IMG/VR virus record: IMGVR_UViG_2595698455_000001
Coordinates: 64,001 to 128,000 of that record
From: a virus
Taxonomy: Duplodnaviria; Caudoviricetes
Length of the DNA: 64,000 nt
Strand: one strand, 5' to 3'
Part shown: one piece after another, positions 11,267-17,570 of the stretch
How positions within the stretch are numbered: position 1 is the first letter of the stretch
Layout of the letters: each line of letters begins with the position of its first letter
Position numbers and translations under genes: made by a program
The notes under the pieces: model-generated
The model's database searches: none
What the model was told of the DNA's origin: nothing
What the model saw: only the letters and a program-made list of their open reading frames with translations

Positions 11267-11722
11267 TCAGAATTGGAATGATTGTTTCATAACGTTCACC
11301 ATGTAGGATGGGTCTACTGGTGTGCGGTTATACGTGATTTTGCCCATGCCATTCAGACGCTCGACAATGCGCTCGACATTCTCTTCGACTGCGGCCTGAG
11401 TCGGTTGGTAATCGTTAAGATAGATCGCGAGTTCCTGTCGATTGTCTGGCGTCACCTGATTGCGGAGCGAAGGATAGTTGACAGTATACCCACGGGAAAG
11501 CAGTTCGGCGACAAGCTGATCATAGCGCTCGATCAGATAAATGAGCTTGTCCCGGAAGAACAGCACATGACCTTCGTTGAGTTTGTACTGCTTCGGCGCA
11601 CCCTTGAGGTTGCGGCGCTTGCCGTTCACCACATTAAGAACGACAGGCGCGAGTTCAGTGTACTCGGCAAGGAGGTGCTGGTCACAAAGAGATTCAACGG
11701 GGATGACATTAATACGGGTCAT
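11267..11722 (-). CDS. denV: Endonuclease V, pyrimidine-dimer DNA glycosylase
   Basis: MTRINVIPVESLCDQHLLAEYTEL...YKLNEGHVLFFRDKLIYLIERY closely matches T4 DenV. Confidence 0.92.
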   Translation of the reverse strand: MTRINVIPVESLCDQHLLAEYTELAPVVLNVVNGKRRNLKGAPKQYKLNEGHVLFFRDKLIYLIERYDQLVAELLSRGYTVNYPSLRNQVTPDNRQELAIYLNDYQPTQAAVEENVERIVERLNGMGKITYNRTPVDPSYMVNVMKQSFQF

Positions 11723-12074: not shown

Positions 12075-12103
12075 ATAATAGGACATTCTTTAGAGGAAGT
12101 AAA
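12075..12103 (-). promoter_or_regulatory. Early sigma70-like promoter TTTACT-N17-TATTAT
   Basis: Direct match; lies just after a terminator-like hairpin at about 12118-12142. Confidence 0.68.
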
Positions 12104-12145
12104 CCCCTAAAAGTAAAAATCCCCAACGTTTGTTGGGGACTTCTG

Positions 12146-12469
12146 TTATTTGCGCAGGGCAACCACGTACTCCGCGAGTTCACCCATGGTCGGGTCATCG
12201 CCTTTACTACCCAGCCAGCTGTCTAAGATGTCCACCTCAAACTCTTCTTCGAGGTCCATTACGATTTCGATGGCATCCAGTTCGTCACCGCCGAGGTCTT
12301 TCTTGGTGCGAAGGCCAGCCAGCTTGTCCAGTGCGTCTTCGTTTTGAGCCGCCACGTCATCCAGCAGTTTGCGCTTGTCTTCATCACGCCACATATCCAT
12401 ATTCAGATTGTCGGTGGCGTACTGAGCCAGATGGCGCATGACCTCAACATATGTTGGTTTGCTACTCAT
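12146..12469 (-). CDS. Acyl carrier protein-like protein lacking the phosphopantetheine serine
   Basis: DLGGDELDAIEIVMDLEEEFEVDI versus E. coli AcpP [24 protein letters not shown]. Confidence 0.82.
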   Translation of the reverse strand: MSSKPTYVEVMRHLAQYATDNLNMDMWRDEDKRKLLDDVAAQNEDALDKLAGLRTKKDLGGDELDAIEIVMDLEEEFEVDILDSWLGSKGDDPTMGELAEYVVALRK

Positions 12470-12511
12470 GTTCTTGCTCCCAAAATAAGGCGGGTTGCCC
12501 CGCCTGTTGGA

Positions 12512-14716
12512 TTAGATTTTGATCTCTTTCTCTGCCAATTCAGCAGTGACCTTGTACTTCACACCATCCACTTCGACTTCCATGGTGGACTCTTCCAGGT
12601 CGAGGTCGGTGAACCAGCCGTGGCCTGCAACGATGCCATACACCACTTTGGACAATTTCTTGTTCAGAGCACGGACTTCAGTGATGGCCGCCTTGGCCGC
12701 AGCGTCGATCCAGCTTTCGATCAGCTGTTTCTGTACGGCTTCAGGCACAGCAGTAATCGCCGGGGACTTCACAAATGCATCATACTCTTTCAGCGCATTG
12801 GCGATGAACATGTCACCAGCATTCAGGTTCTTCTTGTCGGCGATCTTCTTCTGCACCGCTGCGATAGACGGCAGGGAAGACGCCCCAGCGATCTTAACGT
12901 TCAGCTCACGGCTCATGTAGACATCCGTGGAGTCCTTCAGCTCGGTCTTCGGCGAGAAGCCATAATCGCGGATGCCAACACCAGACAGATATTCTGCGGC
13001 TTCAGCGCCGTACTGAATAGCCAGGCCTTTGGCATTGCCTTTACCAACCAGCTCATCGCGATAGAACTTCAGTACCTTCTGTTTGCCTTTCAGGGCTTCC
13101 AGGCGAACGTTGTCGGTAAAGAACTCGGCAGCACTGATGTTCTTAACCATCGCACGGTTGACCAGTGGTATGCTTTCCAGGTTCAGGATAAACACTTCCG
13201 GACCACCGAACACGTGTACGCCCATCTGGCACAGGTTGGTTACGACTTCAACATCGGCGTTGAACGGCAGGGTCTTCACGTTGATGATACCATCTTTGAC
13301 GATGGTATAGTTGCGCCACTGGAAGGTTTCCAGTTCTTCAGGCAGGCCAAACTTCTTCTGGGCGAACTCAGGCACCGCCACAGTGCCGTGCTGGATTGTA
13401 CGCACACTGATGTTCGGGCGCTCAGAGTTATAGACCAGGTCGCTGATAGGGACAAAGCCGAGGTCATCTGCAGGTTCAAACGACGGTGTCCACTCTTCGT
13501 GCTCGGCCAGCTTGAGAGCCAGGGCTTTACGCTCTTCTTTGGATTGAGCATTCGCGATCTCTTCCGCCAGCTTGTCTTCGGTGTCGTCCGCTTTCTGTAC
13601 AGTACCGCGACCAATGCTCTTGTAGGAGAACATCGGGTGTTTGGTGGCAACAGACACGCCAGCTTCGGCCAGGTACGTCAGCACATCAACAACAGTGGTC
13701 GCATCTTCAGCCGGGACCATATTGTAGTCGATACCGTCCACGCCGCGCAGCTGGTCGTCAACTATGGCCTGCGTCAAATCGACTTTGATGTTGGAGTAGT
13801 CTTGCTTGGTGAAACAGTTGCTGTACTGTTTGATGAAGCGAACGTCGCCCGTTTTCTTCAGTGCAGCCCACACCAGGTCGGCGTCCATGATGTGTACGCC
13901 GTAGAATGCCAGCACGTATGCCGCCTGGATGTCAGCCAGCGCATCAAGCTGGTCGATCATGTCGGGGTTGACAACCCACAGCTTCGTGACGCTCTCAGGG
14001 ATGCTCACGTGGCCGATAGGATGTCCTTCATCGTTCTGTTGGACAGCCAGAACAGTCGCCGCGCCGTTTTCAACATAAATTGCATGATCATACAGCAACG
14101 GAACGTCAACAACCACTTTTGGCGTGGATGACTTCAGCACGTTTTCTAGCTCAGTCTGATATTCAGTCTGGCCTTCGGCAAACACGTGAGTTGCGCCGGA
14201 ACGTTCAGACATCTGAGCCAGCAGTTCGCGGTTACAATACCAGCCGTATTCGATGAATGTAACGTTGTCGAATGCGGAAGGAAGTTTTTCGGCGGTGTCC
14301 AGGATTTCATTGGAACGCCAGCAGTTGTCATAACCATCGGTCATGAACGCCAGGTTGTTGACGTAGCCGGGTTTCTTCAGATCACGTGCGGTGTCCATCG
14401 CCAGTTTCAACGGCTCAACAAAGCCAGTACAGCCGGATGGTTGCAGGAAGCGATCGATGAGTTTGTTCAGCTCGCTCAGGTCAGACGCAGCACTGATCTG
14501 ACGACCTGCGAACACAGTACCAAAATCGCCACGGGATGAGAAGTACAGGAGGCTCACGGTGTCTTCCGGTTTCACCAGAGAAGGCAGGTTCTCCTTCAGG
14601 TGCTTACGGACTTCAGGGAGCGCCCGGTACATGGAACCGGAAATGTCCACAACGATTACATGGTTGGACGGAGCAACAGTCGCAACCGCATTCTTAAACT
14701 CCAGGGATTCAATCAT
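12512..14716 (-). CDS. von Willebrand factor A domain protein
   Basis: MIDAS VDISGSM ... T ... FMTDGYDN; about 734 aa, start MIESLEF. Confidence 0.85.
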   Translation of the reverse strand: MIESLEFKNAVATVAPSNHVIVVDISGSMYRALPEVRKHLKENLPSLVKPEDTVSLLYFSSRGDFGTVFAGRQISAASDLSELNKLIDRFLQPSGCTGFVEPLKLAMDTARDLKKPGYVNNLAFMTDGYDNCWRSNEILDTAEKLPSAFDNVTFIEYGWYCNRELLAQMSERSGATHVFAEGQTEYQTELENVLKSSTPKVVVDVPLLYDHAIYVENGAATVLAVQQNDEGHPIGHVSIPESVTKLWVVNPDMIDQLDALADIQAAYVLAFYGVHIMDADLVWAALKKTGDVRFIKQYSNCFTKQDYSNIKVDLTQAIVDDQLRGVDGIDYNMVPAEDATTVVDVLTYLAEAGVSVATKHPMFSYKSIGRGTVQKADDTEDKLAEEIANAQSKEERKALALKLAEHEEWTPSFEPADDLGFVPISDLVYNSERPNISVRTIQHGTVAVPEFAQKKFGLPEELETFQWRNYTIVKDGIINVKTLPFNADVEVVTNLCQMGVHVFGGPEVFILNLESIPLVNRAMVKNISAAEFFTDNVRLEALKGKQKVLKFYRDELVGKGNAKGLAIQYGAEAAEYLSGVGIRDYGFSPKTELKDSTDVYMSRELNVKIAGASSLPSIAAVQKKIADKKNLNAGDMFIANALKEYDAFVKSPAITAVPEAVQKQLIESWIDAAAKAAITEVRALNKKLSKVVYGIVAGHGWFTDLDLEESTMEVEVDGVKYKVTAELAEKEIKI

Positions 14717-15251
14717 CGTTATTGCCTTCTTCAGGGTTGTTATCGGCCTCACCTTCCGGCTTGGTCAGCATATGTTCAACGAATTCACGATACAGCTCAA
14801 TCTGGCTCATCAGTACATCCGTTGGATTAAAGCGGCGGTCGAGGTTGTCGACGCCCGCACGGTTAATTTGGTTGGTCATGACATTACCCCATTTAATCTC
14901 ATTTAACAAGACAACGCCCTGTTGGGATTTAATGGCGACCTTCACAGCATCGAGATGTTCTTTCTCGACTGTGATGATAAGAGTTATACAGGTTTTCTGT
15001 TTGCGCCAAGCCTTGAAATGAGAGACGAAAGACACGTCTTTCTCTTTCATACCGCTCTCGGACTGTACCGGGATGAACACGACACCAGACTCGATGACGA
15101 CTTCCGCATCATCGGGCATATCATCTGTGATGTCATCAATGTACTCACCATTGACCTTGATCGCATGATCATCATGCCAGGCATCCTTCACCCAGTAAGT
15201 GTCATCATGGTAATATTCTTTGAATTCCGCGCCTTTCATCTTCACAGACAT
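14709..15251 (-). CDS. Hypothetical protein, possibly a fusion of two ORFs (internal start at 14879)
   Basis: 180-aa ORF; internal GGGGT-aatgtc-ATG start gives a separate 56-aa protein. Confidence 0.6.
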   Translation of the reverse strand: MSVKMKGAEFKEYYHDDTYWVKDAWHDDHAIKVNGEYIDDITDDMPDDAEVVIESGVVFIPVQSESGMKEKDVSFVSHFKAWRKQKTCITLIITVEKEHLDAVKVAIKSQQGVVLLNEIKWGNVMTNQINRAGVDNLDRRFNPTDVLMSQIELYREFVEHMLTKPEGEADNNPEEGNNDD

Positions 15252-15293: not shown

Positions 15294-15626
15294 TCAAATT
15301 TGTGATGCCAGTTCCATCACCAGAGGAGCGGCACGAACACGCGCTTCTTCCAGAGTTTGGGTGTTGAAGAACTTACCATCACGGTACACCAGCTGGTGCT
15401 GGTTGTCGGCGTCTTGTACCTGATCAAAGGTGATACCGTCAACCAACACTAGTTTACCCTGAGAGTCTTTAATGACTTTAAGGAAACCACGCGCAGACTT
15501 TTTAGTCCCGCCTTTGTCGGTCTTCGGCTCTTTGAAGATCTCACGGAATTCGCCGTTCACCTTACCAGCTGTTGCTTTCACCGCCGTCCCAGTGCTGTCG
15601 CGGGTGTTCAATTTCAAACGAAACAT
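15294..15626 (-). CDS. C-terminal fragment of nicotinamide phosphoribosyltransferase (NadV/NAMPT-like)
   Basis: TRDSTGTAVKATAGKVNGEFREIFKEPKTDKGGTKKSARGFLKV...LVYRDGKF...TLEEARVR resembles the NAMPT C-terminus; only 110 aa, with its own SD and promoter-like motif. Confidence 0.75.
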   Translation of the reverse strand: MFRLKLNTRDSTGTAVKATAGKVNGEFREIFKEPKTDKGGTKKSARGFLKVIKDSQGKLVLVDGITFDQVQDADNQHQLVYRDGKFFNTQTLEEARVRAAPLVMELASQI

Positions 15627-15849: not shown

Positions 15850-16674
15850 TCATCCAGACCGGACTTTGACTTCAAAGGATTTCACGGCAGTTTCCAGATC
15901 ACGACCTTCCGACAGATCTTGCAGCAACGTGCCGATGACAGTATTTCGGATGCCTAAAGAACGTGCCACATTTTCACGTGTGCCTTCATACCAGTAGAAT
16001 CGTGCTTGCAGCTCTTCGGTCATCTGCGTCACGCGAGGATACAACTTGCGTTTGAAATCAAAGAAATTTTGTACCGTATGCTTGTGCTCGTCACCGCGAT
16101 ACAGAGAATTCTGATCGGATTAGTTCCAGAACGATCTCGGCTGACTCCAGAGTTAATTCTTCAGCCGAGCACGGAAGACTTCCACAGCAGGGCGAATTTC
16201 GCCCTTCTTAGAAGCAATGTCATCGCCGCGCAGAACGAATTTGCCGCGCAGGTCGGTGTGGAAGTGATTGTATGTGCGCACATTGCCGTCTTTCATTTCG
16301 TGATTAGACTCAACGCCGACTTTCTTGGTGTCGTTGAAATACACGTCGACGATTGCGTGTTGTTTAACATACGCAGACAGCGCCGCAGCGACAACATCGT
16401 ATTCGTTGCCCAGTTGAATACCGTCCCAAATGGTGACCAATTGGTAATCAGGAGTGATGGTGACCACGCCGCCGATGTTACGGATGAATTGTTTGCAGCA
16501 GGTGCAGTCATGCTCAGTACGTTCACGGTACAGCGGGTTGGTGCCAGCCGGGAATGACGCCAGATACAGATCCCAGAGAGCATCTTTATCAGCGCTGGTC
16601 ATGAACAGGCCAGTATTAGACATTGTTTTGAGGTTATTGTTAACGGCTACTGCGAAAGGCTTAAATTCTGACAT
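15850..16674 (-). pseudogene. Frameshifted, truncated conserved phage hypothetical gene
   Basis: HDCTCCKQFIRNIG N-terminal part; reading continues in other frames as EELTLESAEIVLELI / DQNSLYRGDEHK...IRNTVIGTLLQDLSEG...SFEVKV and then stops abruptly. Confidence 0.65.
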
Positions 16675-16739
16675 GATGTAGTCTTCCTGTTTCAGTTCAA
16701 ATTAGCGCCCCGATGGAGCGCATCGTTAAAGTGAGGTCA

Positions 16740-16764
16740 ATAATACGTTGAAAGAGTTATTGAA
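16740..16764 (-). promoter_or_regulatory. TTCAAT-N13-TATTAT promoter-like motif
   Basis: Direct match. Confidence 0.6.
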
Positions 16765-16784
16765 GAACCAAGTAATGCAGATCT

Positions 16785-17570
16785 TTATTCAGAAGAACCG
16801 TATCGTTCTATCCATTTAGGACATTTCAAAGGTTCCCACCCTTTATTGAAACGTTCGATAATGCTGTTTGTCGCATTAAAAGCCTTCAAATCCTTTGTTC
16901 CGTACACATGCATGAGGGCTTCCGCTCTTTTCATCGTCTTCAAAGATTGCATAAGCAAATCAGCTTTTGACCAATACGCATCATTTTCGGGGTTCCATTT
17001 CGCTTTCTCCCAAGGCAACTTCACCAACATACCTTTCTGGGCGTTTTCTTTCTGTTTGGATCGTTGTTCCGGTGTGAAAGAATTGGTTAAGTCCTTCCCA
17101 TAATTGGGATTGAGTTCCCCGAGTTTTGATTTTCTATAACCGGACACATCGGATATGCGTTTCCTTTTCGAAAGCCACTCGGCCTTTTGTTCCTCTGACA
17201 TACCACAATAGAATGAGTTCAACGCAGAACTGATCTTAGACTTTGTCGCTTCTTCGTGTTCAGTCATAGACAAATACACAGGATTACCGTCCCTATCACA
17301 CATGAATTTGTTCATAGAGAAAGGGCTTCTGTATGTCTTGGATATCAGTAAAGATTCCAGACGCAAAACTTCCTCGGTGGTGTCCGCAACAAAGACAATC
17401 TTTATGTCGAAATAATCTTTTCCGTGCTCTTCAATAATAGACTTTACGGTATTTGAAGAGGTATAGTATTTCACCCAGAAGTCGGCTGGGTTACACGTAT
17501 TAGAAAATCGACAACCGTAATAGAATCTTCCGTCTTTGGCTCGAACCCGATACACATACGGCTGTCTCAT
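16785..17570 (-). mobile_element. Free-standing GIY-YIG (Seg-like) homing endonuclease gene
   Basis: PYVYRVRAKDGRFYYGCR...YYTSS...E...N catalytic domain; NUMOD3-like GELNPNYGK; AT-richer than flanks. Confidence 0.82.

Follow-up and report, generated by a model that had tools for sequence, protein, structure and literature searches.

What use could a large tailed phage of the Salmonella/E. coli type have for a protein that keeps the surface by which an acyl carrier protein (ACP) is recognized by its partners, if the Ser to which phosphopantetheine is attached has been lost? This question is raised by an open reading frame (ORF) at positions 12146..12469 (minus strand) of the window, i.e., the whole 64,000-nucleotide stretch of DNA analyzed here, which corresponds to bases 64001-128000 of a virus record of 152,427 bp with an estimated completeness of ~97%. 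The region around the gene is ~90% identical to Agtrevirus-type Ackermannviridae, such as EspM4VN (Enterobacter) and ChubbyThor and Ag3 (both Shigella). A previous sequence-only reading had regarded the 107-residue product as an ACP mimic that cannot work as a carrier. The present analysis demonstrates that the Ackermannviridae protein is a real and conserved non-carrier ACP, a variant of a known fold family; among the possible binding partners considered below, a client of the host AcpP is ranked first and a neighboring phage vWA-domain protein is the main rival.

Fold and Recognition Surface of the ACP-Like Protein

Judged from the agreement of profile, PDB, and model matches, the ORF encodes a protein that by structure is a member of the ACP superfamily. 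It matched the Pfam PP-binding profile PF00550 above the threshold (22.6 bits, cut-off 20.8, E 1.3e-4) and, along its entire length (residues 1-107 on profile positions 1-108), the phage family phrog_4154, named 'acyl carrier protein' (E 2.2e-57). Scores for PF14573 (25.9 bits) and for the NCBIfam AcpP equivalog TIGR00517 (29.5 bits) were below the respective cut-offs of 32 and 70.45. A phmmer search of PDB sequences retrieved 97 distinct ACP-type chains at E<=10, the best of which (E 1.6e-5) places its DSLD opposite the DELD of the phage protein. Similarly, BLASTP against E. coli K-12 AcpP revealed 16/27 identical residues over the motif and helix II (E 1e-08), with the AcpP attachment Ser opposite Glu63. 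The AcpP motif quoted in the sequence-only reading agrees with the K-12 genome record, and its statements that the ORF is homologous to ACPs, that the acidic helix II is kept, that Ser is replaced by Glu, and that an extra segment precedes the motif were all borne out.

Three segments of the protein can be distinguished. Residues 58-83 (12221..12298, minus strand), which include the DxL motif, the acidic helix II, and the next loop, constitute the predicted partner-recognition surface and the most conserved block; residues 58-81 read DLGGDELDAIEIVMDLEEEFEVDI. Within it, codon 63 (GAA, 12281..12283, minus strand) specifies Glu at the phosphopantetheine-attachment position, as supported by both the alignment and homologue counts. 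Residues 23-53 (12311..12403, minus strand) form a helical insertion in the loop between helix I and helix II, the least conserved block, of which ~27 residues are without counterpart in canonical ACPs according to both the alignment and the structural comparison by VIA, where 75-84 of the 107 residues could be aligned with whole ACP chains. Finally, residues 85-94 (12188..12217, minus strand) form a W-x-G-x-x-x-D-D-P-T loop in the 23-sequence alignment of homologues (A1).

The AlphaFold2 model, which was built with 23 homologues, is helical, with a pLDDT of 76.3. All 50 matches listed by VIA were carrier proteins (72-86 residues aligned), with 3ce7 as the best match (Z 7.8, rmsd 2.5 A, 82 residues aligned). 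The top Foldseek matches were likewise all ACPs (E>=0.18). The ESM Atlas, with only unnamed clusters and a viral ACP cluster at 0.91, was not informative. As VIA Z scores below 8 may reflect a common helical arrangement, assignment to the ACP fold rests on structure and sequence jointly. Compared with E. coli AcpP (b1094, PF00550), the phage protein has the same four-helix fold (VIA Z 7.0-7.6, 75-77 residues aligned), and all acidic residues of helix II are kept (D62, D65, E68, E74, E75, E76, and D83 match acidic residues of AcpP), so that the helix II recognition surface is retained; it differs in having Glu or Asp for Ser, the loop-1 insertion, a longer W-G-DDPT loop, and a phage genome devoid of carrier-pathway genes.

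Loss of the Attachment Ser as a Family Trait

Homologues of the ACP-like gene were detected by tblastn in 252 phage records, all of which (252/252) have a full-length intact ORF at >=80% coverage. A pool of 63 sequences (the window protein, 44 cluster representatives, and 18 copies from viral contigs) contained 59 distinct full-length Ackermannviridae homologues; Glu occupies position 63 in 49 of these and Asp in the other 10, whereas Ser never occurs there. Asp63 is typical for Kuttervirus-sized contigs (L010 and L013-L019). Whether Glu is conserved had been suggested as a check by the sequence-only reading: an acidic residue is indeed a family trait, but Glu is not exclusive, which fits a need for a carboxylate and not for Glu specifically. 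With Glu or Asp in 59 of 59 distinct homologues, a private mutation or a sequencing error was rejected, as was the idea that homologues mostly retain Ser. Three more divergent homologues, from Ackermannviridae-sized contigs, also have Glu at the Ser position, two of which are ORFs of ~90 residues without the loop-1 insertion (L021 and L022) and one an ORF of ~100-120 residues (L023); the insertion is absent from Serratia-phage-3M-type homologues. Single-protein scans of viral contigs with two distant relatives (P0040 and P0042) yielded no loci.

Replacement of the attachment Ser by a carboxylate implies that neither phosphopantetheine nor an acyl chain can be received. The PP-binding domain is present as a single copy in the 152-kb phage record, in which ACPS-type transferase (PF01648), AMP-binding (PF00501), and ketosynthase (PF00109) domains were not detected at E<=1; the control genomes matched all three families. 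ACP enzymes exist in the host but cannot use a Ser-less protein. It may still be argued that the protein does act as a carrier, a different residue being modified, or that it is a functionless, decaying acpP relic, since many records annotate it as 'acyl carrier protein' and T94 is conserved (57 Thr and 2 Ser among 59 distinct homologues). However, T94 is a helix-IV cap that is conserved at >=90% in ordinary ACPs too, the Ser/Thr-rich columns 6 and 19 are variable, no family-specific Ser, Thr, or Cys acceptor column was present in the homologue alignment, and the phage has no transferase, which together led to rejection of an alternative attachment residue. Decay into a pseudogene was rejected as well, because the ORF is intact in all 252 records and surface residues are invariant. 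Both versions of this explanation are disfavored and barely credible, and the view of the sequence-only reading that the protein is not a working carrier could be upheld.

Judged from sequence comparison, the phage protein is therefore a conserved non-carrier ACP. As it does not have the defining functional feature of the group, it should not be filed as an acyl carrier protein, and it probably works by binding something and not by shuttling fatty acids.

Selection on the Helix II Surface

The pattern of conservation may indicate what kind of binding is involved. In A1, D62, L64, D65, I67, E68, E74, E76, and D83 are invariant, and E63, M71, E75, and I81 are conserved at >=90%; G60-G61 is also invariant, and a second invariant cluster consists of W85, G87, D91, D92, P93, T94, G96, and E97. 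Mean pairwise identity is 0.72 over the motif and helix II (residues 54-83) and 0.39 over the fast-evolving loop-1 insertion (residues 23-53). Divergence of the whole protein is also much faster than that of its vWA-domain neighbor: phage CRW-SP2 and the window share 39% identity in the ACP-like protein vs 80% in the vWA protein, and the corresponding values for Kuttervirus-type contigs are 58-63% and 83-84%. The acidic residues of helix II are those by which AcpP contacts its client proteins. Retention of the helix II block while the remainder diverges thus suggests that the selected surface is the one that ACP clients read; however, helix II is conserved in all ACPs, and fold constraint or inheritance could explain part of its conservation.

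A less specific use of the same residues would be that of a generic polyanion, either a DNA mimic with anti-restriction activity or a buffer of divalent cations, for which the ACP fold would be nothing more than a charge scaffold. The protein is indeed acidic (pI 4.26, 27 Asp+Glu vs 13 Lys+Arg in 107 residues) and carries an additional carboxylate beside D62. But E. coli AcpP is equally acidic (pI 4.05), so that acidity is not specific; in addition, conservation follows the exact helix II pattern and not overall charge, and the fold search matches, as listed, are carrier proteins only. Such a role appears very unlikely.

Comparison with Known ACPs

Loss of the attachment Ser in a protein that is retained under selection has a precedent. 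According to a study of mitochondrial ACPs (mACPs), the Plasmodium falciparum protein, in which Ser is replaced by Phe, is free of phosphopantetheine and binds the Isd11-Nfs1 complex; the replacing residue lies within the interface, and acidic ACP residues pair with basic residues of the partner (PMC8547962). The same study mentions Cys or Gly at the Ser position of Toxoplasma mACP homologues and reports Ser-less ACPs only from Apicomplexa and Vitrella (PMC8547962). By analogy, the phosphopantetheine-free Plasmodium mACP may be regarded as the nearest functional precedent for the phage protein, and the top VIA match (3ce7) is described as a 'toxoplasma specific mitochondrial ACP'. Nevertheless, the apicomplexan proteins are eukaryotic, have a hydrophobic replacement in P. 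falciparum, and serve an LYR partner, Isd11, of the Fe-S machinery, whereas the phage protein has a carboxylate; it would thus work like an apicomplexan mACP without being a member of that group. A second comparison is offered by the apo-ACP of E. coli, which also has no prosthetic group and whose reported inhibition of glycerol-3-phosphate acyltransferase, stronger than that by holo-ACP, corresponds to the mechanism proposed below, although it is a transient host intermediate that AcpS can convert, whereas the phage protein is fixed in an unmodifiable state and carries extra segments.

Ordinary phage ACPs are small viral PP-binding proteins as well (the query matched phrog_5934 at E 1.6e-09, and BFVD entries from Olleya phage Harreka_1 and Caulobacter phage phiCbK had TM scores of 0.56-0.71). 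They differ from the Ackermannviridae family, which never has Ser, in that Ser was found in 80/80 of the best 80 among 448 viral relatives matching G[AG]D[SED]LDx[IVM]E; the ranking favors likeness to a Ser-type query, so that this count shows Ser to be usual in phage ACPs and says nothing about the rarity of alternatives. A Ser-less phage ACP was not found described in the literature searched, which excluded many subscription-journal papers, and the Ackermannviridae literature found mentions the ACP-like protein only in annotations or through a single spectral hit. The Ser-less ACP of phages therefore appears to be previously unremarked, its records being annotated as 'acyl carrier protein'.

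Genomic Context and a Possible Phage Partner

The ACP-like gene (minus strand) sits among early/middle-type genes. Its neighbors include a denV-type glycosylase (11267..11722), a 79-residue phrog_804 protein encoded downstream, a MazG-like pyrophosphatase, and a 5-hmdU DNA kinase. Directly upstream lies the gene for a 734-residue protein of phrog_2426 with an N-terminal vWA domain (12512..14716, minus strand), for which a GTG at 14752 is an alternative start. This protein represents a candidate phage partner, a serious alternative to a host target that the sequence-only reading had left out of account. Its model (pLDDT 84) resembles proteins composed of a vWA domain and a beta-sandwich (4fx5, ITIH1, and the ArnB/Sec23-24 type); neither these matches nor a PDB profile search, which retrieved vWA domains only, provided a link to ACP. 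Some records label the phrog_2426 vWA protein 'minor tail protein', and it was retrieved just once in a virion proteomics study.

Acidic ligand residues complete the metal coordination of the MIDAS in integrin-type vWA domains. It is conceivable that the ACP-like protein serves the vWA protein as a subunit or regulator and that its exposed carboxylate pair D62-E/D63, which follows a flexible Gly-Gly and lies at the helix II tip, would play this role. Of 23 ACP-like loci, 22 have a vWA homologue upstream in the same orientation, also in genera whose vWA proteins are only 50-56% identical, and the remaining locus (L020) belongs to a 20-kb contig that is unrelated; 45-50 nt separate the two genes at 18 of the 23 loci. 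The MIDAS-type residues (D24-x-S26-x-S28, T97, and D127) do not vary among 25 vWA homologues, tolerance of both Glu and Asp at position 63 is what would be expected of a metal ligand, and the Gly-Gly pair (G60-G61) does not vary. On the other hand, the vWA family, which was found in 486 phage records, extends to RB43-like T4-type phages (47-49% identity) and, at 32% identity, to Alishewanella phage Slicko01; in RB43 and Slicko01, no ACP-like gene lies beside the vWA gene and the PP-binding domain was detected in 0/2 records at E<=1. The unequal rates of evolution seen in CRW-SP2 are not in favor of a tight pair either; synteny is kept throughout this phage family, which makes adjacency alone weak evidence; and a VWA-like neighbor (DUF2201, L057) was present at only 1 of 22 loci of other Ser-less ACP-like genes.

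The two genes are also separated by a conserved terminator-like element, a GC-rich hairpin followed by a T-run (12488..12505, minus strand), whose stem sequences differ between the window, L002-type, and CRW-SP2-type loci while pairing is kept (compared in L002-L019 and L064). A second terminator-like hairpin followed by TTTTTACTTTT (12120..12139, minus strand) lies just past the stop codon of the ACP-like gene and is conserved in relatives; a sigma-70-like sequence, TTTACT-17-TATTAT (12103..12075, minus strand), comes after it. No promoter of its own was detected for the ACP-like gene at the locus. The hairpin between the genes weighs against a partnership with the vWA protein, which we hold to be unlikely on balance.

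Several further features of the region concern the genes upstream. An ORF of 180 residues (14709..15251, minus strand) combines phrog_4254 (residues 1-115) and phrog_8656 (residues 125-180), which are separate genes elsewhere; the alternative GTG start of the vWA gene falls within its terminal part. A 110-residue C-terminal remnant of NAMPT (positions 438-547 of 547 of phrog_12872) is encoded at 15294..15626 (minus strand). Relatives such as EspM4VN have a full NAMPT and a ribose-phosphate pyrophosphokinase here, which implies that the window phage appears to have lost the NAD-salvage pair. A GIY-YIG/SegE-like homing endonuclease is encoded at 16785..17570 (minus strand), within 16153..17570; the 173-residue ORF beside it matches only positions 1-173 of 673 of phrog_1735, which suggests disruption or truncation of a gene through insertion of the homing endonuclease.

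Host AcpP Clients as Possible Targets

AcpP is among the most connected enterobacterial proteins. The explanation that we rank first is that the ACP-like protein binds to a client of the host AcpP at the site where ACP docks; this is a tentative assignment, somewhat short of an even chance, and it is placed ahead of the others because the preserved surface is one that host clients have evolved to read. The tight linkage to the vWA/MIDAS gene (22 of 23 loci) would be explained just as well by a partner from the phage itself.

AcpP docks via its acidic helix II on basic patches of its clients, and the phage protein, which keeps this surface, would compete with AcpP for the docking site of at least one client during infection. 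The carboxylate at position 63 might be placed where the phosphate of the prosthetic group would lie, and the client thus occupied might be blocked or locked in one state. Candidate clients would be PlsB (glycerol-3-phosphate acyltransferase), Fab and Lpx enzymes, AcpS, SpoT, MukB, and IscS; a decoy acting on lipid or lipid A synthesis, MukBEF, or the stringent response had been put forward as a possibility by the sequence-only reading as well. The loop-1 insertion may stabilize the fold in the absence of an acyl chain, or add specificity. A Ser-less ACP could be considered, in effect, a permanent apo-ACP.

In a review, overproduction of ACP is described to stop growth through inhibition of glycerol-3-phosphate acyltransferase, with apo-ACP as the stronger inhibitor (PMC3896788). 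The same source reports that SpoT does not bind apo-ACP (PMC3896788), which suggests that some clients may be out of reach for a protein without Ser, and that host AcpP makes up 0.25% of soluble protein (PMC3896788), so that a competitor would need high expression or a higher affinity. Another study lists FabF/B/H, FabD, FabG, AcpS, PlsB, Aas, YbgC, IscS, MukB, and SpoT among proteins co-purifying with AcpP and describes the AcpP mutant S36T as non-functional (PMC3340395). In addition, the FlashPPI preprint contains a computational prediction that a phage ACP, not named there, binds host FabZ (10.64898/2026.03.01.708874). That the gene follows a terminator-like hairpin, and that a separate promoter was not detected for it, counts against competition with host AcpP.

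If the ACP-like protein does engage a host client, the phage would possess a copy of the AcpP docking face that cannot be loaded, that is, a natural and specific probe or inhibitor of the AcpP hub, and a factor of a new type for host takeover or counter-defence. Ackermannviridae are widely used for biocontrol of Salmonella, E. coli, and Klebsiella.

Ser-Less ACP-Like Proteins beyond Ackermannviridae

Many ACP-like proteins with D-[ED]-L-D were found outside the Ackermannviridae family by a profile search and a metagenome scan, both of which were built from Glu/Asp-type sequences and are therefore silent on the frequency of this class. The free-standing type has 72-100 residues. Signal-peptide- or lipobox-like N-termini were recognized in P0085, P0095, P0098, P0107, P0123, and P0176, in all of which Ser is replaced by Glu or Asp, and at the loci L031/L032, L034/L037, L039, L044, L046, L048, L049, and L050; judging by these N-termini, the proteins are apparently exported. 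The metagenome scan returned generic D[ED]L-type ACP-like proteins only and did not find the contexts of P0039-P0047. The neighborhoods of 22 other Ser-less ACP-like genes were heterogeneous, and no common partner was present among the 104 neighboring proteins scanned.

Other members of this set are C-terminal fusions. One of them was found in a metagenomic locus (L038:2642-3514, plus strand), where a protein of 290 residues consists of a TIR_2 domain (43.7 bits), a Lys/Glu-rich coiled-coil linker, and a C-terminal ACP-like domain with Glu; it is followed by a gene for an 873-residue WD40-repeat protein (L038:4018-6639, plus strand). ACP-like modules with Glu thus occur in immune-type architectures. 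This arrangement bears on the idea that the phage protein is a decoy not for metabolism but for an immune or toxin protein of the host, which would employ or sense AcpP, be switched on by it, or respond to disturbance of its clients. Fast divergence outside helix II is common for genes involved in host interaction, and NAD-salvage genes (NAMPT and Prs) and a MazG-like pyrophosphatase are located nearby in relatives, both of which would agree with a decoy. However, only one TIR fusion is at hand and its relationship to the phage protein is not close, an ACP-dependent defence system was not found in the literature searched, and PADLOC models gave no match for the ACP-like, vWA, and downstream 79-residue proteins, though this library holds defence and not anti-defence proteins. 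A decoy of this kind seems decidedly unlikely.

A more far-reaching combination of the host-client explanation with the wider class can be formulated. Ackermannviridae would carry the first viral 'dead ACP', a fixed decoy mimicking the holo form by a carboxylate in place of the phosphoserine linkage and jamming the AcpP hub, i.e., lipid synthesis through PlsB or Fab/Lpx enzymes, SpoT-dependent ppGpp control, or MukBEF. At the same time, this protein would be one tip of an unrecognized class of ACP-like binding modules with Glu or Asp for Ser, to which exported bacterial lipoproteins and the TIR fusion would belong and which would at present be hidden under the automatic name 'acyl carrier protein'. 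As a whole, this picture is doubtful.

The consequences for annotation are more immediate. At least 252 phage records carry the gene, many of them under the name 'acyl carrier protein', and the NCBIfam cut-offs for 'acyl carrier protein' are passed by Ser-less proteins of the wider set (P0123, L046, L048, L038, and L031), so that exported relatives of this type would be misnamed automatically. Given these 252 records and the Ser-less relatives of bacterial lipoprotein type that pass ACP cut-offs, interpretations of such genes as 'auxiliary metabolic genes' are probably wrong. The phage and bacterial cases also widen the view, published in PMC8547962, that Ser-less ACPs are limited to Apicomplexa and Vitrella.

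Two loci of the wider class have neighbors of a familiar kind. A Glu-type ACP-like gene lies near ClpS-like and NAPRTase-family genes at L063:51-3019, and another near the gene for the VWA-like DUF2201 protein at L057:3512-6261. Each is a single case that echoes the NAMPT-vWA-ACP-like gene order of Ackermannviridae, a resemblance that may be due to chance.
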